NCBI GenBank assembly: GCA_021736525.1
Contig: JAIPFR010000001.1
Location: 891-64,890 of the forward strand
Origin: Spirochaetia bacterium
Lineage (GTDB): Bacteria; Spirochaetota; Spirochaetia; JABMQR01
Length of the DNA: 64,000 nucleotides
Reading direction: 5' to 3'
Below are positions 39,418 through 46,752 of this stretch, piece by piece; positions within the stretch are counted from its first letter, which is position 1; the number at the start of each line of letters is the position of its first letter. The translations under genes were made by a program, and so were the position numbers. Below the pieces are notes generated by a model. The model was not told the DNA's origin. It was given only the letters and a program-made list of their open reading frames with translations, and did not search any database.

Positions 39418-40875
39418 ATGCTCTGTCTTACTTTAACAGAAACCAGTCTGGAAAAAGATCTTCTGCAGTTTCAAAAAAACAGAGATCTTATCGATATGGC
39501 AGAGCTGAGGATAGATTTACTGGGATCGGAAATCTCAGTTGATGCTCTCCGGAGATTCCCCTCCCTGTGCGATAAACCGGTAATCCTGACTTGCCGTCGA
39601 AAAAAAGATGGCGGATTGTTTTCTCAAAGTGAAAGGGTGAGGGTCAATCTGTTAAAAAGACTCGCTTCTGGAAATTTTGCATACTGCGACTTGGAAGATG
39701 AACTGCCCAGAGGGGAAATAGACCTGACCTTCAGGGAAAAGGGCACCAGAATAATCCGCTCATTTCATGACATGACGGCAGTTCCGGGGAATTTGTTTAC
39801 ACGAATGCAGAAAATCGCAGAGCAGGGGGAGATTCCAAAAGCTGCTGTTATGCCGAATTCATTTGCAGATACGGCACGTATCTTTGAAGCGAAGAATGAA
39901 CTGCAGAAAATTGAACGAAAAATCATTATTGGAATGGGAAATTATGGAGTTCCTACCAGAATATTATATAAAAAAACAGGTTCATTTCTCACCTTCTGCT
40001 CAGCACCTGGAAGCAGTCCGGGAGCTCCCGGTCACTTAAATACAGAAAGTCTCCGAAAGCTTTACCGTTCTGATCAAATTACTGATGATACATCAATCTA
40101 TGGTATCATCGGTAATCCGGTAATGCATTCAGCTTCTCCCGCTATTCACAATCCAGGATACCATCGTCTTGGCATTGATGCCGTATATGTTCCTTTCATG
40201 GTTGACTCAGTACGGACGTTTTTCCCATTTGCAGAGTGGTTTGGAATTAAAGGTTTTTCCGTGACCGTTCCGCACAAGCAGAATGTACTTCCGTATCTTG
40301 GAAATATATCTCGAGAAGTTAAGCAGATTGGCAGCTGCAATACGGTTGTAAGAACAAAAAAGCTTTGGAAGGGCATCAATACTGATTACTATGGGTTTCT
40401 GCATCCGATTCATGAAGATTTGGAGATGGGCCACCTGAAACGTGCTTTAGTTATTGGAGCCGGGGGGGCTGCGCGTTCAGTAGTCTGGGCATTGAGGAAT
40501 TTCGGCTGCAGTGTTTATATAACAAATAGAACATTTGATAAAGCAGAAAGGCTTGCAGCTGAAACAGGTTCATCTGCGATTACACTCCAGGAAGCTAGCC
40601 GGCTCTGTGCCGACGAAGCGGAAAAATATCCTGACTTAATCATTCAAACAACCAGTGCCGGTATGGATCCGGATATTGAAAGCGACCCACTGCCGGAATA
40701 TAAGTTTACCGGTGAAGAAATAGTTTATGAGCTTGTTTACAAACCGCGAATAACCCGCTTTCTTAATCGAGCGATTCAGTCAGGCTGCAGAATTGTGTAC
40801 GGTTATGAAATGCTGTATGCCCAGGGTATACAGCAGTTTAAATCTTTCACAGGATTTGACTATCCGCAAAATTAA
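39418..40875 (+). CDS. aroDE: bifunctional 3-dehydroquinate dehydratase (type I) / shikimate 5-dehydrogenase
   Basis: N-terminal type-I DHQase region (LCLTLTETSLEKDL...AELRIDLL), C-terminal AroE region (IIGNPVMHSASPAIHN, GAGGAARSV Rossmann). Confidence 0.8.
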   Translation: MLCLTLTETSLEKDLLQFQKNRDLIDMAELRIDLLGSEISVDALRRFPSLCDKPVILTCRRKKDGGLFSQSERVRVNLLKRLASGNFAYCDLEDELPRGEIDLTFREKGTRIIRSFHDMTAVPGNLFTRMQKIAEQGEIPKAAVMPNSFADTARIFEAKNELQKIERKIIIGMGNYGVPTRILYKKTGSFLTFCSAPGSSPGAPGHLNTESLRKLYRSDQITDDTSIYGIIGNPVMHSASPAIHNPGYHRLGIDAVYVPFMVDSVRTFFPFAEWFGIKGFSVTVPHKQNVLPYLGNISREVKQIGSCNTVVRTKKLWKGINTDYYGFLHPIHEDLEMGHLKRALVIGAGGAARSVVWALRNFGCSVYITNRTFDKAERLAAETGSSAITLQEASRLCADEAEKYPDLIIQTTSAGMDPDIESDPLPEYKFTGEEIVYELVYKPRITRFLNRAIQSGCRIVYGYEMLYAQGIQQFKSFTGFDYPQN

Positions 40876-43064
40876 GGGGTGAACAAAGATGCATGAAGTT
40901 TTCTCAGTAAAAACACCTTTCTCACAGTATAGGATCTTTCAATACCCTCAGGCAGGGTTTTTCCTGTAATAACCGCATCTTGCCGGGCAGGGTACTGGAG
41001 AGATGTCGGCTGAAGAAGTGTGACGATTTCCCTACGGGATGCGTCACGCTCATGAATTTCAAGAAGCTCATTTTTTTTACTGAGAGCATCCTTACAGAGG
41101 TTTATTTTCCCCTGATAATCAAGACCCCGTGCCTCGCTGATTGTGGCATGGATTCGCGATCCCTTTATCTGCTCATCTGAAAGTATAAGCTTTTTATCAA
41201 TTCTAGCCCTGAAATCTTCGGTATCTTTTTCCGAGAGCTTTTTGAGATTAAGAGAGTTCAGCAGATCCTCTACGAATCCAGGAACGTTCTTTTCTGTATC
41301 TTCAGGAATGGCATACGCAGAATCTGCCTTCATTATCACTGAAAGGTTGATGTTTGATAAGTAATTATTTACTGTCTCAAGACTATCATCGATAAAGCTC
41401 ATTACCGACGGCTGCTGCATAGGCTCTTCGCTGCTTGAAGGTTTTTCAACATTTGAATATTTTGTCTTTGGAAGGTACTCAATGCCGAAAGAGGATAAAC
41501 AGCTTCTCCACACTTTTTCAGATTTACGGTCCATGAGAAACAAGCCTTCAGCCAGTGTTTCCAGAATGTATTGTTTAAAATCAGGATGAGAAGTTATGAT
41601 ACGGCTCATTGCTGCGTCTGCTTTCAGTACAATACCGGAAAGCAGCGATACTCGATTGTAACTGTCCCTCCATGTCTGCAAGGTCCGGAGTATGAGCGGG
41701 GGAACTTGAAATCCTGAGGCTTTCTCACAGGCAGATTGAAAATCTGTTATACTTCGGCCCATGTCGCAAGCTCTCAGGAAGCTCTTTTTAGTCAGGTCGA
41801 ATGAATACAGGATATCAATTTTTCTCAATTCAAGAAAAACCAGCAAATCAAAAGCATTCTCTGTATTAATTGAGGGGTCTGCGCGAATAGTAAAGTCTGA
41901 ATCCAAGGATGCAAAAGGTTTGGAAAGCATCTTCTGCGAAAGAGCAGGTGAGGAATTATCGGATTCTGCAAAAATCGGGTGTCTCGGGAACAGCTTACTG
42001 AAAAAGACTGTTATTCCAGGGTTTACGGCGTAATACCCTTCATATTGAGTGGGATAAAGAATCTGCTGTGACACCAGGACTTCCATTAATGGATTAAGAA
42101 GGATTTCTTGAAATTCCATGGAGTTTTTCTCGCTGCTGATTATTCGTGAAATTATGATCAGTCTTTGCAGGGCTTTCTCCCCGATCACGTTAAGGTTTCC
42201 TGCTGTCAGGAAAATCAGGAAAAACAACAATTGACTCATAATTTCCCGGGTAGGTGAGAGCCCCAGCAAAGCAGCTAAACCCGGCAGAAGCAGTCGCTGC
42301 GAGAGGGGTGACCCAGATATATCAGCAACAGATCGAATATCAAGATCGGACGCTATACAGGGAATATTCTTTTTTATTTCAACAATACCCAGTGTATTAA
42401 ATGCGCTGATTGCCAGATTCCATGCAGAAGAAAGTATTTCAGCAGTTTCAGGATTGCCGGAAATACTGGTGAATTTTTCTGACATCAGCTTTGGGGGCTG
42501 TCCGTCCGTTTGTTCTGCAGTGTTTCGCTGAAGAAGATGAACCAGTACTGTTGGAATGAAGAAACCATTGCTCAGACAGTCGGCAGGCAGCGGCTTAGCA
42601 GCAGCGGGCAATAAAACATTTTCAACTATTACTTGATTATTGCCGCAGCCAATCAGCAATGAAAAATCGATGAGTTTTTTTTCTGCCAGATCGTGGAAAA
42701 GAGGATTGATCTGAAGTCCGGTTCCGTCAGTCGAGGTAAGAAGGAGGAGACGTTCTTCAAGGTTAAGAACAGCATAATGCAGCTGAAAAAATTCAAGCTC
42801 ATCCTTGAAGATTTCATAAATATCCTGAATTGAAGGCTCTTCAAGCATGGATACTGCTGTCAGTATCTTCCTGTCCACGGTATCTGCTATTTCTGCTATT
42901 CGCTGCAGCACCTCGGTCCTGGTAAGAAAAGAGATAAGCTTTTTAATGAGGGTAGGTTTATGGAACGGTGTCTGAAGCGGACCCAGATAGTTTCGCATGA
43001 TATAGAAAAATGTATCATCGGGCATTGAGAGCAGAAGACTTGTGAACACATCCTGTTTATCCAT
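40872..43064 (-). CDS. large uncharacterised protein co-transcribed with XPB-like helicase (possible Bax1-like partner)
   Basis: 730 aa from ATG 43064 (TTG at 43079 alternative), 5 nt after helicase stop. No recognisable catalytic motif. Internal segments resemble the helicase N-terminal damage-recognition-like region. Confidence 0.5.
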   Translation of the reverse strand: MDKQDVFTSLLLSMPDDTFFYIMRNYLGPLQTPFHKPTLIKKLISFLTRTEVLQRIAEIADTVDRKILTAVSMLEEPSIQDIYEIFKDELEFFQLHYAVLNLEERLLLLTSTDGTGLQINPLFHDLAEKKLIDFSLLIGCGNNQVIVENVLLPAAAKPLPADCLSNGFFIPTVLVHLLQRNTAEQTDGQPPKLMSEKFTSISGNPETAEILSSAWNLAISAFNTLGIVEIKKNIPCIASDLDIRSVADISGSPLSQRLLLPGLAALLGLSPTREIMSQLLFFLIFLTAGNLNVIGEKALQRLIIISRIISSEKNSMEFQEILLNPLMEVLVSQQILYPTQYEGYYAVNPGITVFFSKLFPRHPIFAESDNSSPALSQKMLSKPFASLDSDFTIRADPSINTENAFDLLVFLELRKIDILYSFDLTKKSFLRACDMGRSITDFQSACEKASGFQVPPLILRTLQTWRDSYNRVSLLSGIVLKADAAMSRIITSHPDFKQYILETLAEGLFLMDRKSEKVWRSCLSSFGIEYLPKTKYSNVEKPSSSEEPMQQPSVMSFIDDSLETVNNYLSNINLSVIMKADSAYAIPEDTEKNVPGFVEDLLNSLNLKKLSEKDTEDFRARIDKKLILSDEQIKGSRIHATISEARGLDYQGKINLCKDALSKKNELLEIHERDASRREIVTLLQPTSLQYPARQDAVITGKTLPEGIERSYTVRKVFLLRKLHASLFTP

Positions 43065-43069
43065 GATAA

Positions 43070-44797
43070 TTAATCCCAATTCTCAATATGATACTTATAG
43101 CCTTGTTCAATAAGAAATTTCTGTCTGTTAGCAGAAAATTCTTCCTCGGTAGTAAAACGGGTGACAATGGAATAGAAACTTGACCCGTGCTCTTTAGGTC
43201 GAAGAATGCGTCCCAACCTTTGGGCTTCCTCCTGTCTGGAGCCGAAGGTGCCCGAAACTTGTATCGCTACGGATGCATCAGGCAGATCAATTGCGAAATT
43301 AGCAACTTTGGAAACAATTAAAATCCGCTGCTCACCCCTGCGGAAAGCACCATAGAGTTCTTCACGTCTGGCATTCTGAGTTAAGCCGGTAATGATCGGC
43401 TGCTTAAGTTCTTCCGCTAATTCTTTCAGTTGGGAAATGTATTGACCGATAACAAGAATGTAATCATCAGGATGGTTTTCAATAAGCTGTTTGACAACAT
43501 CTATTTTAAGAGGGTTTTCTGCTGCAATGCGATGCTTCTCCCGTCTGGTCCCGACGGCATAAGATAACTCCAGCTCCTGTTTGAGCGGAATGCGAATTTC
43601 ATAGCAGTTGGCTTCGGCAATCCAACCCTTCTGTTCCAGTTCCTTCCAGGGAACGTCATAACGTTTGGGCCCAACGAGAGAGAACACTTCATCCTCACGA
43701 TTATCTTCACGAACTAACGTTGCGGTGAGCCCCAGTCGGCTGATAGCCTGTATCTCTGCAGTAACTTTGAAGACTGGCGCGGGGAGAACATGTACTTCAT
43801 CATAGATAATCAGTCCCCAATTACGTTTGCTGAAAATACTGAAATGGGGAAAATCGCTCAGCTTGTCCTTTCTCCACGTCAGAATCTGGTATGTGCAGAC
43901 AGTAATTGGACAGATTTCCTTCTTGAATCCGGTATATTCACCGATCTGATCACGTTCTAGCGTTGTTTTATCAAGAAGTTCAAACATCCATTGATGCACT
44001 GCCGCCGTGTTGGTGGTGAGAATCAGGGTGTTAGTCTGAAGCGCTTCAATTACAGCAATACCGATAATTGTTTTTCCCGAACCGCAGGGAAGCACCAGAG
44101 TGCCGAAACCGGAGCAGCCATTGCCGGAAGCAGTAAAAGAATCCCTTGCTTCAAATTGGTAGTTCCTTATATCAAAAGGATATCCCGATAGAGTTTGACT
44201 TCGCAGGCTGACCGGCAGCGGATCTCCTTCCCTCAGGGGGCATTGATCATCAACCGGATACCCTGCTTTGATCAACTGAAGTTTCAGCTCTCCGCGATTA
44301 TACAGATGAACCAGAAACCCCAGCTGAATATCTTTCTGGTTCTCAATGTTTCTGCCGGTCAGATCAGGGTCAACGTTTTCCGGCAGGGGGGCAAGCAAAG
44401 ATGCTATATTTTTGCGCGACAGGAGTTCGTGATGAAGATTAGCTTCTGGTACATATAGATAAAGAAACTGATCGTTTTGGTTAATTCTGTGCAGTGAGAG
44501 AAGTCCATATCTGTTTATGGTTTCCTTTATAAAATAGAGGACATTTTCCGGGATGGGAAATCTGGACCAGAAAGAGAGTTCTTCGATAATCCTTTCGGCT
44601 GTGAACCCGGCTGAAGCGGCGTTCCAGATTGACAGAGAGGATAGCAGGTACGTATGGAAATGTTCGGGAGATTTTATCAGTTCAGCGAATGCTGCAAGTG
44701 AGTTGCGGGCATTCTGGAACTCTGGTGAGTGAACTTCGAGTAAAATAGTTCTGTCGCTTTGTATAATTACCGGACGCTCATGATCAGATTCAGTCAT
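43070..44797 (-). CDS. XPB/Ssl2 (ERCC3/RAD25)-type superfamily-2 DNA helicase
   Basis: N-terminal XPB-style domain, Walker A LPCGSGKT, DEVH box (IIYDEVHVL), XPB-specific RED motif (TATLVREDNRED), helicase C-domain motifs; 575 aa. Confidence 0.75.
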   Translation of the reverse strand: MTESDHERPVIIQSDRTILLEVHSPEFQNARNSLAAFAELIKSPEHFHTYLLSSLSIWNAASAGFTAERIIEELSFWSRFPIPENVLYFIKETINRYGLLSLHRINQNDQFLYLYVPEANLHHELLSRKNIASLLAPLPENVDPDLTGRNIENQKDIQLGFLVHLYNRGELKLQLIKAGYPVDDQCPLREGDPLPVSLRSQTLSGYPFDIRNYQFEARDSFTASGNGCSGFGTLVLPCGSGKTIIGIAVIEALQTNTLILTTNTAAVHQWMFELLDKTTLERDQIGEYTGFKKEICPITVCTYQILTWRKDKLSDFPHFSIFSKRNWGLIIYDEVHVLPAPVFKVTAEIQAISRLGLTATLVREDNREDEVFSLVGPKRYDVPWKELEQKGWIAEANCYEIRIPLKQELELSYAVGTRREKHRIAAENPLKIDVVKQLIENHPDDYILVIGQYISQLKELAEELKQPIITGLTQNARREELYGAFRRGEQRILIVSKVANFAIDLPDASVAIQVSGTFGSRQEEAQRLGRILRPKEHGSSFYSIVTRFTTEEEFSANRQKFLIEQGYKYHIENWD

Positions 44798-44838: not shown

Positions 44839-45630
44839 TTATAGATGATATAAGTCCTCCCTCCGGTCAGAAAAAATATGGTTGCGTCTGGTTATATTCT
44901 TATCACGGGCAAGATCAGGATCAATATCTATGATAGCAATTTCCTCCTTGTCAGGAGAGGACGATGCAAGGATAGATCCGTCAGGTCCGGTTATCTGACT
45001 GCCTCCGGTGTAGGTGCATGATACAGGACCTGATTGTTCACTGCCAATTCTATTAGCCAGTATCCAGAATACCCGATTTTCTATCGACCGGGATCTTGTG
45101 GTTATTTGTGCGGCCCCTTCAATAACAAGGTTTGAGGGGTGACAGATTATCTGAGCCCCCAAAAGAGCGAGAGTTCTTGCAGCCTCAGGAAAAAGATGGT
45201 CAAAGCAAATCAGCATGCCGACAGTTGTACCGTTAACGTCAAAAGTAAAGAAATCCTCATTCCCCGGCTTAAAGTGGAGTTTTTCCCTGTTGAACAAGTG
45301 CGCCTTGCGATAGACTTTCATTACTCCTTCAGGGCTTATATAAACGGAACTGTTAAAAAAACTGCCGTCCAGAGCATCCTCTACACAACCGTATACATAG
45401 GAAGTATGGTTTTTAACTGCCATGCTGCTGAAAAAATCTGAAGTAGGACCGGGCAAAGTCTCGGCACAAAGCGCCAGTTCATCCTGGCTGCTGAATAGAT
45501 ATCCGGAGAGAGCGAGTTCAGGCAGTACCAAAAGATCCGTACAATTACCTGAAACAGCTGCAGAAATCTTGTTTCGTGTTTCTTCAAGGTTGTGAAAAAT
45601 TGGTGAATATTGGTAGTAACCTATTTTCAT
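44839..45630 (-). CDS. carbon-nitrogen hydrolase (nitrilase superfamily)
   Basis: Catalytic triad context: Glu in VLPELALSGY, Lys in VYRKAHLF, Cys in MLICFDHLFPE; 263 aa. Confidence 0.8.
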   Translation of the reverse strand: MKIGYYQYSPIFHNLEETRNKISAAVSGNCTDLLVLPELALSGYLFSSQDELALCAETLPGPTSDFFSSMAVKNHTSYVYGCVEDALDGSFFNSSVYISPEGVMKVYRKAHLFNREKLHFKPGNEDFFTFDVNGTTVGMLICFDHLFPEAARTLALLGAQIICHPSNLVIEGAAQITTRSRSIENRVFWILANRIGSEQSGPVSCTYTGGSQITGPDGSILASSSPDKEEIAIIDIDPDLARDKNITRRNHIFSDRREDLYHL

Positions 45631-45631
45631 T

Positions 45632-46225
45632 TTATTCTCCTGCCTCTAAATGCATCAAAAAGTTATTAATCATGCCTGCAGATTGTTCAATAGGCTGGTC
45701 GCCCGATATATCTATTATATAATCGGAGATCCCCCTATATTTTTCATCACGCTCCCTGAAAAGATTATGAAAACTGACTTCCGGTGCATTCTGATCAAGA
45801 AATGGAGGTATTCCGTTCTTCATAATCCGTGTCAGAAGAATCTTTTCATCCTGTTGAATGTAGAAAACTGTTCCGCCTGATATTTTAATGTGCTGAATAA
45901 GCCTGTTGTTATCACAAGCTCCGCCGCCAAGAGCAACAAGGAGCCTGGATTCTTTAGCATCAGCTGATTGTGCTAAATAGTTTCGCAGGGATGCAAATTC
46001 AATTTCTGCAAAGGCTTCTCTGCCGAATATACGGTAATACTCTCTTACTGAGACGCTGCGTTCGTATTGATTCTGCAGTGAATCAAGAATAAGATCATCA
46101 GCATCGGAAAATAGAAGATGGTGCTTCTCAGCGATGAGACGTCCGAGAGTGCTTTTCCCACAATGCTTCAATCCGCAAAAGAATAACGGCAGCGGTATTT
46201 TTTTCAGTAGTTGATTATGTTTCAC
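45632..46225 (-). CDS. P-loop kinase, shikimate kinase (AroK)-like
   Basis: Walker A FFCGLKHCGKSTLGRLIAE followed by FSDADDLI, as in AroK (GxxGxGKST.GR.LA....F.D.D..I). Start assigned to GTG at 46225, 1 nt after upstream stop (TAGcGTG). Confidence 0.5.
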   Translation of the reverse strand: MKHNQLLKKIPLPLFFCGLKHCGKSTLGRLIAEKHHLLFSDADDLILDSLQNQYERSVSVREYYRIFGREAFAEIEFASLRNYLAQSADAKESRLLVALGGGACDNNRLIQHIKISGGTVFYIQQDEKILLTRIMKNGIPPFLDQNAPEVSFHNLFRERDEKYRGISDYIIDISGDQPIEQSAGMINNFLMHLEAGE

Positions 46226-46226
46226 G

Positions 46227-46616
46227 CTAATTCCTGATACGGTCGGATTCCGATTCCGGATCGTCACTATAGGCCCTGAAATTTTCCGGTGATGCATCTC
46301 TATCCAGCAGTATTTTTCGGGAAGCTCTTTCAAACCGCAGAGTAAACAAATTCCTGTAGAGGATTATGAGACTTACCAGCCAGACCAATGCTCCCAGAGC
46401 CGGAAAAGAGGCTCTCAGCAGATCCAGGCCTTCAAGGATAATTATCTCTGCTGCGCTCGCAAACACATCATACAGAACGTCAATGAAAAACATGAATGAA
46501 GCGAAACTGGGGAGAATCCAATAGTAGCCCCACTGCTTGAAAACAGAGAACAGCGAGAAAATAAAAGCTGTCAAATGCAGCACTGCGGCTATCAGCTCGA
46601 TATGAAACAGTTCCAT
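46227..46616 (-). CDS. small integral membrane protein (3-4 TM helices), first gene of the operon
   Basis: 129 aa from ATG 46616 (MELFHIELIAAVLHLTAF...). Hydrophobic helices, charged C-terminal tail. Stop abuts the kinase GTG. Confidence 0.45.
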   Translation of the reverse strand: MELFHIELIAAVLHLTAFIFSLFSVFKQWGYYWILPSFASFMFFIDVLYDVFASAAEIIILEGLDLLRASFPALGALVWLVSLIILYRNLFTLRFERASRKILLDRDASPENFRAYSDDPESESDRIRN

Positions 46617-46752
46617 GGTTGTGAAGTATTCACGCTCCCTCAAAAAAAATGATTGAATATGCAAGATTGTCGATTACAGACACAGCATAGTATACTATCA
46701 ATAAGCAATTTTGATAAGCGACTGAGAACAAATATTACTTTGAGGTAATTAC

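Follow-up and report, generated by a model that had tools for sequence, protein, structure and literature searches.

The window analyzed here, 64,000 nucleotides from a Spirochaetia bacterium, contains a pair of adjacent genes on the minus strand, located where the preliminary description had placed them. The upstream gene (43070..44797, minus strand) codes for an XPB/Ssl2-type SF2 helicase of 575 aa, while the downstream gene (40872..43064, minus strand) codes for a large protein of 730 aa, referred to below as the partner, which is labeled as a hypothetical protein in the database and which we describe as a p52/Tfb2-like member of the Pfam TP_0021_N plus Helicase_C_3 family. The neighbors of the pair in the window are housekeeping genes, i.e., shikimate kinase, CN hydrolase, aroDE, ABC-F, and rpsB, and a separate gene for p8 is not present in the window.

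The helicase matched the NCBIfam model NF045503 (“DNA repair helicase XPB”) with a score of 815.7 bits (the equivalog cutoff is 610) over the complete model (positions 1 to 548 of 548), and its Pfam domains were Helicase_C_3, ResIII, and ERCC3_RAD25_C. The translation contains a Walker A motif (GSGKT, aa 239 to 243; 44069..44083, minus strand), a DEVH box (aa 333 to 336; 43790..43801, minus strand), and the RED motif region TATLVREDNRED (aa 358 to 369; 43691..43726, minus strand), in which REDNRED occupies aa 363 to 369. The XPB N-terminal domain was recognized at aa 10 to 135 (44393..44770, minus strand; Pfam Helicase_C_3, E value of 1.3e-29). This is an orthodox XPB with its N-terminal domain retained, and equivalog score, domains, and motifs all uphold the identity first proposed for it.

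The two genes are tightly packed. The TAA stop codon of XPB and the ATG of the partner (at 43064) are separated by the 5-nt spacer TTATC (43065..43069, minus strand), with the junction reading ...TGG GAT TAA ttatc ATG GAT AAA, so that the spacing noticed at the outset can be read directly from the sequence. Given that there is no strong Shine-Dalgarno sequence at this short spacer, translational coupling of both genes is likely, and they are presumably cotranscribed. No terminator-like site was found at the spacer on the minus strand, and the promoter and terminator scans gave numbers of sites not above those expected by chance. In the four closest loci, the gap between the two genes, as judged from the alignment ends, was 4 to 8 nt. 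Starting at the ATG, the partner has 730 aa, in agreement with the database protein and with the homologues; the version of 735 aa starting at a TTG is only the mechanical start of the ORF and was discarded.

Pfam TP_0021_N (PF27388.1) is precomputed for the database protein identical to the partner as well as for 12 of 12 homologues, and PF13625 is also precomputed for the former. This family, which includes its namesake TP_0021 of T. pallidum and whose members are annotated as “helicase-associated domain-containing protein,” was represented by a profile of 60 sequences, 57 of which carried Helicase_C_3. Both designations (“helicase-associated domain” and TP_0021_N plus Helicase_C_3) are annotation labels to which no function is assigned. 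When the homologue search was repeated with the 60-sequence profile, the same 13 proteins were recovered.

Along the partner, we distinguished several regions. The N-terminal conserved region (aa 1 to 112; 42729..43064, minus strand), defined by invariant columns in both family alignments, includes the motifs FFYIMRNYLGPLQTPFHKP and NLEERLLLL, is helical in the structural model, and probably corresponds to Pfam TP_0021_N. It is followed by a region collinear with p52 by HHalign and Foldseek (aa 113 to 515; 41520..42728, minus strand), made up of a helical/winged-helix middle part, a clutch, and a p8-like C-terminal module. The clutch domain, with homology to p52 MD2 and the XPB N-terminal domain, extends over aa 388 to 504 by Pfam (41553..41903, minus strand) or aa 379 to 477 by HHalign. 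The module next to it (aa 477 to 525; 41490..41636, minus strand) has a beta-alpha-beta-beta-alpha secondary structure in the model (strand 477 to 481, helix 484 to 497, strands 500 to 505 and 508 to 512, and helix 516 to 525) and occupies the place that in p52 belongs to the C-terminal domain with its p8/Tfb5-like dimerization fold. Finally, the C terminus forms a five-stranded beta-barrel (aa 641 to 730; 40875..41144, minus strand) in a fragment model (pLDDT of about 90) and by Foldseek, with the near-invariant motif EARGLDYQGK.

The preliminary description had pointed out that segments of the partner echo the N-terminal domain of the helicase. Aligned by HHalign with an XPB N-terminal-domain alignment, the partner family gave a probability of 97.3% (E value of 2.4e-11), with partner aa 379 to 477 corresponding to XPB aa 4 to 105. 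Therefore, the echo is real and in the register proposed, and the echoing segment is the “clutch” domain of p52. At the sequence level, this likeness is detectable only with profiles, as BLASTP between the two proteins of the window gave an E value of 0.17, not significant and in the wrong register, and Pfam Helicase_C_3 matched partner aa 388 to 504 with an E value of 4.9e-6, under the gathering score. In human TFIIH, p52 recruits XPB through a pseudosymmetric dimer of its clutch and the XPB N-terminal domain (PMC6422496), and by analogy, the partner's clutch is predicted to dock onto the N-terminal domain of the helicase.

How far the similarity to p52 extends was evaluated using human GTF2H4/p52 and yeast Tfb2 as the TFIIH comparison proteins. 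When the AlphaFold model of the partner was compared with the PDB by Foldseek, all 22 matches with an E value of ≤1e-3 were p52/Tfb2 chains (4.8e-8 to 7e-4), aligned over 518 to 565 columns in the full-length chains and 337 to 405 columns in shorter constructs, and these were the only strong fold matches of the partner. XPB chains ranked behind them, with E values of about 1e-2 over about 160 columns. Since the p52 NTD, MD1, and MD2 domains have been described as lacking significant structural homologues (PMC7708078), the exclusivity of these matches is meaningful. TM-scores to p52 were low (0.2 to 0.3) because the relative positions of the domains differ. As a single sequence, the partner had no match among PDB sequences. 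The 60-sequence profile found human p52 (1.2e-5) and yeast Tfb2 (3.7e-5), with the XPB N-terminal domain behind both (0.1). Along similar lines, HHalign against a p52 alignment, which consisted of vertebrate sequences only (Neff of about 1.4 to 1.7), gave a probability of 96.2% and an E value of 2.5e-9 over 325 collinear columns, with partner aa 113 to 515 corresponding to human p52 aa 103 to 448. Pfam Tfb2 (PF03849) was matched by 9 of the 60 family members (best E value, 6e-6) and had no match in the partner of the window at an E value of ≤1, while Tfb2_C (PF18307) had no match among the families listed for the 60 members.

What the partner appears to have in common with p52 is the order of its domains (a helical front, the clutch, and the p8-like beta-alpha-beta-beta-alpha module), and what the pair has in common with the XPB-p52(-p8) assembly of eukaryotic TFIIH (PDB 6NMI, 6TRS, and 8EBT) is an XPB with a clutch-bearing partner. 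The differences are the bacterial host, the encoding of both proteins as a two-gene operon, and the size of the partner, which exceeds p52 by about 270 aa and has a disordered linker and the WYL-like C-terminal barrel (about aa 640 to 730), absent from p52. Taken together, we consider it likely that XPB and the partner represent in bacteria what the XPB-p52 module is in eukaryotic TFIIH. The alternative of a novel accessory factor, offered earlier as a fallback, therefore pointed in the right direction, with TFIIH p52/Tfb2 as the closest known protein.

A simpler explanation would be that the partner carries one duplicated XPB N-terminal domain and pairs with XPB without being a true p52 homologue, the remaining p52 likeness being convergence or a generic helical/winged-helix fold. 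In line with this, the p52 signal at the sequence level is carried by the clutch; once it was removed, significant similarity was lost (partner aa 1 to 378 against p52 aa 1 to 300 gave an E value of 0.029 and a probability of 1.7%), and the p8-like module by itself was not significant against p52 by HHalign. Upstream of the clutch, the likeness to p52 comes from the predicted fold. The lack of a Pfam Tfb2 match in the window partner, the low TM-scores, and a database annotation limited to an XPB N-terminal-type domain also fit a mere duplication. However, the family profile clearly favors p52 over the XPB N-terminal domains (1e-5 versus 0.1), and Foldseek places p52 chains some 5 orders of magnitude above XPB chains, with alignments three times as long. 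The HHalign alignment is collinear over its 325 columns, even the weak alignment ahead of the clutch keeps the same register when taken alone, and the nine family members matched Pfam Tfb2 directly. We therefore regard the duplication of a single domain as improbable, although it is the alternative that fared best.

The preliminary description had left open whether the linkage to XPB is conserved, and this proved to be the case. Of 45 spirochaete loci, 32 had XPB directly upstream of the partner and in the same orientation, and aroDE synteny was kept in 35, which indicates vertical inheritance. In nine loci, the partner had no XPB within the upstream sequence examined (1.7 to 5 kb per locus), so there it may use an XPB encoded at a distance or have an XPB-independent role. 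Beyond the spirochaetes, XPB was found beside or near a clutch-bearing protein of 620 to 850 aa in six genomes that represent four additional phyla (Deinococcus, Paenibacillus, Actinomyces, Tsukamurella, Acaryochloris, and Gloeocapsopsis); the relatives in Deinococcus, Paenibacillus, and the actinomycetes belong to the same TP_0021_N plus Helicase_C_3 family. The large mycobacterial neighbor of XPB mentioned in the preliminary description was checked in a relative, Tsukamurella (Mycobacteriales), where a 725-aa protein annotated as “helicase-associated domain-containing protein” lies at a distance of 3.5 kb from XPB. The p52 profile aligned by HHalign with the single partners of Paenibacillus, Tsukamurella, and Acaryochloris over short stretches of the clutch, in register and without significance. 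The Acaryochloris pair is carried by a conjugative plasmid, beside transposases. The 99-aa ORFs beside the Deinococcus and Actinomyces partners were discarded, as the two have no relationship with one another and that of Actinomyces looks membrane-like. Haloarchaeal plasmids code for XPB-like helicases that had no p52-like or Bax1-annotated neighbor and were thus uninformative.

The barrel at the C terminus has other fold matches. Its Foldseek matches were dominated by WYL proteins, i.e., PafBC, BrxR, CapW, and the DriD C-domain (E values of 9e-4 to 0.1), and include DriD and CapW structures solved with single-stranded DNA (ssDNA). The RMSD was 2.4 to 3.1 Å over 71 to 80 columns for BrxR and Pseudomonas aeruginosa CapW and 3.7 to 5.3 Å over about 80 columns for Rhizobium leguminosarum CapW, the DriD C-domain, and PafBC. 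Of the 28 Pfam families matched by the 60 members at an E value of ≤1, 25 were listed, and WYL was not one of these; it was also absent from the window partner. In the model, the barrel thus resembles ssDNA-binding WYL domains with modest significance. The part that was matched to the WYL ssDNA sensors (PafBC, DriD, CapW, and BrxR) consists of the five-stranded barrel and the preceding helix; the partner lacks both the WCX domain and the classical N-terminal HTH-WYL arrangement.

These matches, together with the winged-helix-like elements in the front part of the partner and the nine loci in which it keeps its syntenic place beside aroDE with no adjacent XPB, could mean that the partner acts chiefly in transcription, as a DNA damage-responsive regulator similar to the HTH-WYL proteins PafBC, DriD, CapW, or BrxR. 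Its barrel would then sense ssDNA, and XPB, not an obligate subunit, would be a target of this regulation or simply an occasional neighbor. Nevertheless, neither WYL nor HTH appeared among the 25 most frequent Pfam families of the 60 members, the sole HTH-type match being in one member with an E value of 0.019, and the best full-length fold matches were p52 and not HTH-WYL regulators. Furthermore, a clutch similar to the XPB N-terminal domain plays no part in known WYL regulators, and in the partners from other phyla, the clutch is kept, whereas nothing in them matched the barrel significantly. A role primarily as a regulator is thus quite unlikely.

The hypothesis put forward in the preliminary description, a distant Bax1-like nuclease forming with XPB a helicase-nuclease machine of the archaeal type, is very improbable. 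It was based on an analogy, since archaeal XPB genes adjoin bax1 (XPB-Bax1 structures exist in the PDB [PMC7672443]) and here a dedicated, large partner gene also adjoins that of an XPB family helicase. However, neither sequence nor fold likeness to Bax1/DUF790 was found in the partner. The profile searches suggested at the time found no DUF790/Bax1 match in the window partner (Pfam, E value of ≤1), none in the 60 members across the 25 families listed, and no Bax1 chain among the PDB profile matches at an E value of ≤10, recovering instead the relationship with Helicase_C_3. The suggested fold search on an AlphaFold model yielded p52/Tfb2 rather than a nuclease, with no Bax1 chain among the best 50 matches listed for either the full model or the C-terminal model. 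No PD-(D/E)xK or other nuclease signature was recognized among the conserved residues. In addition, the N-terminal domain present in bacterial and eukaryotic XPB is apparently absent from the XPB of Archaeoglobus fulgidus (PMC3353954), and this is the domain to which p52 binds, which also counts against Bax1. Bax1/DUF790 identity was therefore discarded, a correction that remains even if the p52 reading is wrong. An anti-phage defense module, hinted at by the match of the XPB helicase core to PADLOC PbeA models (E value of 2e-18) and by the plasmid location of the Acaryochloris pair, is the least credible explanation, given that the PbeA matches reflect only the generic SF2 core (64 bits, compared with 816 for the XPB equivalog), that the partner has no PADLOC match, and that the housekeeping surroundings in the window and the aroDE synteny speak against it.

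By analogy with TFIIH, the partner would be an accessory and regulatory subunit of XPB and not a nuclease. Its clutch would pair sheet to sheet with the XPB N-terminal domain, and clutch and p8-like module together would cradle XPB RecA2, contacts that may stabilize XPB and tune the weak ATPase/translocase of this helicase. Contacts with DNA, and possibly with ssDNA, could come from the winged-helix array together with the WYL-like barrel and would direct the XPB motor to damaged or unwound DNA. In eukaryotes, the ATPase of XPB is stimulated by p52 plus p8 (PMC7708078), and the finding that isolated Mycobacterium tuberculosis XPB was active only at a large molar excess (PMC3353954) is compatible with the lack of an activator.

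In the same 2012 study of M. tuberculosis XPB, neither a p52 homologue in bacteria nor an XPB complex was found (PMC3353954). A 2025 review considers p62, p52, p44, p34, and p8 to be “exclusively present in eukaryotes” (PMC11855273), and a 2026 review describes the function of bacterial XPB as “more elusive” (PMC13024598). Our literature searches returned nothing relevant on a bacterial p52 homologue, Rv0862c, TP0021, or an XPB-linked “helicase-associated domain” and no discussion of TP_0021_N plus Helicase_C_3 proteins. The broader proposal, to which we give even chances, is a bacterial two-subunit proto-TFIIH made up of XPB and a p52 orthologue and shared by five or more phyla; in some cases a small, separate p8-like protein would be added, and the spirochaete version would carry a WYL-like ssDNA sensor. 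If this is true, the clutch interaction between XPB and p52 would be older than, or imported into, the core of eukaryotic TFIIH, so that p52 would not be a eukaryotic invention, and the poor enzymatic performance of isolated bacterial XPB would be explained. A conserved XPB-p52-like operon, if confirmed, would provide a simple two-protein system, free of the TFIIH core, for the control of the XPB motor by a clutch, would suggest that the activating subunit was missing from earlier bacterial XPB biochemistry, and would be relevant to how the lower lobe of TFIIH arose in evolution.

Two ORFs on the minus strand occupy the interval under study. The upstream one (575 aa, 43070-44797) is an XPB helicase: the NCBIfam equivalog “DNA repair helicase XPB” matched it end to end with 815.7 bits (cut-off, 610), and Pfam assigned to it Helicase_C_3 (the XPB N-terminal domain, aa 10-135), ResIII, and ERCC3_RAD25_C. 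The helicase motifs listed in the preliminary description, GSGKT (aa 239-243), DEVH (aa 333-336), and TATLVREDNRED (aa 358-369), were all found in its translation. The second ORF encodes the 730-aa partner (40872-43064), with an ATG at 43064 that agrees with the starts of an identical database protein and of the homologues. Only 5 nt separate the two genes, as had been claimed (TAA-TTATC-ATG), and they may be co-translated. ORF coordinates, NCBIfam and Pfam assignments, this junction, and the profile-detected similarity of the partner to XPB thus confirm the initial observation of an XPB gene closely followed by a large partner. The helicase core also matched four “PbeA” models of PADLOC over partial regions (E values of 2e-18 to 4.5e-7), most likely through generic SF2 similarity; the matches do show, though, that a defense-system helicase is kin to XPB.

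The partner had been said to echo the N-terminal domain of the helicase. A plain BLASTP comparison of XPB aa 1-140 with the partner was not significant, and the Pfam Helicase_C_3 match at partner aa 388-504 (E value, 4.9e-6) fell under the gathering score; the same model matched 57 of the 60 partner-family members. We then compared by HHalign the partner family with an alignment of XPB N-terminal domains (29 spirochaete loci, the window protein, and six proteins from other phyla), and partner residues 379 to 477 aligned with XPB residues 4 to 105 (97.3%; E value, 2.4e-11). The echo is real and in the register proposed. At the level of sequence profiles, we consider this similarity to be correct and well beyond chance, and the homology of the partner to the clutch (the MD2 domain of p52) to be solid.

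The best overall description of the partner is that of a bacterial XPB accessory subunit resembling p52/Tfb2, the XPB-anchoring subunit of TFIIH in human and yeast, with an added WYL-like domain. An AlphaFold2 model (mean pLDDT, 73.5; pTM, 0.63) was searched against the PDB with Foldseek, and all 22 matches at E values of ≤1e-3 were p52/Tfb2 chains from human, yeast, and Chaetomium (4.8e-8 to 7e-4), with full-length chains aligned over 518 to 565 columns, which covers nearly all of p52. Chains of XPB ranked next (E value of about 1e-2, ca. 160 columns). Given that, in the paper on the p52 crystal structure, the NTD, MD1, and MD2 were reported to have no significant structural homologues (PMC7708078), fold matches restricted to p52 are meaningful. 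TM-scores against p52 were low (0.2 to 0.3), as expected when flexible multidomain chains are superposed rigidly. A Bax1-like nuclease (DUF790, encoded beside XPB in archaea), the comparison initially favored for the partner, was rejected, since the best fold matches were to p52/Tfb2 and no Bax1 chain was among the top 50 PDB matches listed.

Searching PDB sequences with the 60-sequence family profile placed human p52 (1.2e-5), yeast Tfb2 (3.7e-5), and Chaetomium p52 (3e-4) at the top, with XPB N-terminal domains behind them (E value of about 0.1). The Pfam Tfb2 model matched nine of the 60 family members directly (best E value, 6e-6) and gave no match in the window partner. With HHalign, the partner family aligned with a vertebrate-only and very shallow p52 alignment (Neff of about 1.4 to 1.7) over 325 collinear columns (96.2%; E value, 2.5e-9), partner 113-515 corresponding to human p52 103-448. 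Once the clutch was removed, the pre-clutch region matched p52 aa 1-300 in an unchanged register at an E value of 0.029 (1.7% probability), and the p8-like module alone matched nothing in p52. For the apparent likeness to p52 across the whole partner, the predicted fold and collinearity are the main evidence. We regard it as probable that the partner is truly homologous to p52 and docks on XPB, while the broader evolutionary reading, a bacterial two-subunit XPB with a p52 orthologue, is evenly balanced.

Along the partner, the N terminus (aa 1-112) is helical and strongly conserved, with the motifs FFYIMRNYLGPLQTPFHKP and NLEERLLLL, and is followed by a helical region with short hairpins (aa 113-378), collinear with the later part of the p52 NTD and with MD1, and by the clutch (aa 379-477). 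In the model, a beta-alpha-beta-beta-alpha unit (aa 477-525) sits where p52 has its C-terminal domain, a domain of the p8 fold (PMC7708078). A low-confidence linker with helices (aa 526-640) leads to a near-invariant EARGLDYQGK and a five-stranded barrel (aa 641-730). When the last 200 residues were modeled separately, the barrel reached a pLDDT of about 90, and its PDB matches (E values of 9e-4 to 0.1) were dominated by WYL-domain proteins (PafBC, BrxR, CapW, and DriD, including the DriD C-domain with ssDNA), with the Pelota N-domain and TrmB also among them. The RMSD was 2.4 to 3.1 Å over 71 to 80 columns for BrxR and Pseudomonas aeruginosa CapW, and 3.7 to 5.3 Å for Rhizobium leguminosarum CapW, the DriD C-domain, and PafBC. 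Because Pfam WYL was absent for the window protein and was not among the 25 families listed (of 28 matched at E values of ≤1) for the 60 family members, the predicted WYL likeness is counted as one of fold only.

In TFIIH, p52 recruits XPB through a pseudosymmetric dimer of its clutch with the XPB N-terminal domain, and RecA2 is cradled by the clutch and the p52-CTD/p8 pair (PMC6422496); the XPB ATPase is stimulated sequentially by p52 and p8 (PMC7708078). The N-terminal domain is retained in bacterial XPB (PMC3353954), including, by Pfam, that of the window. Bacterial XPB alone is a weak enzyme and has to be supplied at a large molar excess (PMC3353954). Read most economically, the window pair would form a heterodimeric XPB/p52-like motor, in which the partner may stabilize XPB and tune its ATPase through a direct interface, and targeting to DNA or ssDNA may come from the helical/winged-helix array and the WYL-like barrel of the partner.

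A 2025 review describes p52 and p8 as exclusively eukaryotic (PMC11855273), the 2012 paper on Mycobacterium tuberculosis XPB knew of no bacterial p52 or p44 homologue or XPB complex (PMC3353954), and a 2026 review calls bacterial XPB function “more elusive” (PMC13024598). In the full-text literature covered, which leaves out most subscription journals, we found no bacterial p52 homologue, no function for Rv0862c, no TP0021, and no description of “helicase-associated domain” proteins with XPB; an earlier description in print may exist. The shared domain is already annotated at the database level.

When 1.84 billion representative proteins were searched with a profile of the partner family, 720 clusters matched at an E value of ≤1e-30, and the best 150 listed were almost all 620 to 780 aa long. 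Database names were “hypothetical protein” or “Helicase XPB/Ssl2 N-terminal domain-containing protein”, and the precomputed Pfam content was Helicase_C_3 plus PF27388 (TP_0021_N, a name taken from a Treponema pallidum ORF). T. pallidum has both TP_0021 and a separate ERCC3-like gene.

A scan limited to a single genome for each species gave 45 loci; apart from one labeled Lentisphaeria and one unclassified “uncultured bacterium”, all were Spirochaetota. XPB lay immediately upstream on the same strand in 32 of them, and among the closest relatives the gaps measured a few nucleotides; nine had no XPB in their 1.7 to 5 kb of upstream sequence, and in four the upstream sequence was too short to judge. 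Partner genes with no XPB in 1.7 to 6 kb of upstream sequence (L008, L010, L012, L018, L020, L026, L027, L031, L042, and L053) kept the same position, next to a convergent fused dehydroquinase/shikimate dehydrogenase gene (aroDE) in most, wherever aroDE was detected. Since aroDE follows the partner in 35 of the 45 loci, even where XPB is missing, the locus is an old chromosomal position and not a mobile island.

In the window, which derives from a Spirochaetia metagenome-assembled genome, the genes around the pair are housekeeping, with rpsB, maf, and an ABC-F gene more distant. The stop codon of aroDE (39418-40875, plus strand) overlaps that of the partner by 4 nt (40872-40875), therefore leaving no intergenic space for a terminator, and a scan of the partner strand at the overlap found no terminator-like site. 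On the XPB strand, a CN-hydrolase gene (44839-45630) directly precedes XPB at a distance of 41 nt and is itself preceded, 1 nt away, by a shikimate-kinase gene (45632-46333); these spacings suggest one operon of kinase, CN hydrolase, and XPB. A CN-hydrolase match was found in 12 of the 45 loci; only in the five closest does it adjoin XPB on the upstream side, along with the kinase, and in the other seven it lies ca. 2.8 kb upstream. A hydrophobic 145-aa ORF without a Pfam match (46227-46664, minus strand) overlaps the 5′ end of the kinase ORF by 107 nt; one of the two start codons was probably misassigned by the mechanical ORF call.

Outside the spirochaetes, an XPB search of plasmid and chromid records provided six examples. 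Paenibacillus has a 657-aa protein of the “helicase-associated domain-containing protein” type overlapped by XPB, Actinomyces a divergent 847-aa protein with XPB, and Tsukamurella a 725-aa protein 3.5 kb from XPB, while in Deinococcus XPB is followed by a 99-aa ORF and an 811-aa “helicase-associated domain-containing protein”. In the cyanobacteria Acaryochloris and Gloeocapsopsis, a gene for a protein of ca. 622 aa directly precedes XPB. Helicase_C_3 is present in all six partners, and the spirochaete family HMM matched four (E values of 2e-20 to 6e-3, with the database size nominally set to one million), reaching upstream of the clutch in Deinococcus and Tsukamurella.

In the cyanobacterial plasmid pairs (L046:2114-5656 and L052:2110-5674), the gene order is reversed relative to spirochaetes, and the partner has a C-terminal clutch without the barrel extension. 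The Acaryochloris pair is on a conjugative plasmid, beside IS630 and Rpn transposase genes, and another plasmid in this strain carries a near-identical match, which hints at horizontal spread of the pair.

The 99-aa ORF between XPB and partner on the Deinococcus sp. QL22 plasmid (L047:5753-6052) had no Pfam match. By eye, its last ca. 60 residues (LSVLEVQD...DLDALLLDARFAG...QVVSRLGPTFALLTPGSEKAVLEALRKAG) look like the beta-alpha-beta-beta-alpha module found in the C-terminal domain of p52 and in p8, and these residues gave weak BLAST matches (E values of 2 to 7) to the post-clutch regions of the Deinococcus and Paenibacillus partners; the ORF might encode a p8-like subunit of its own.
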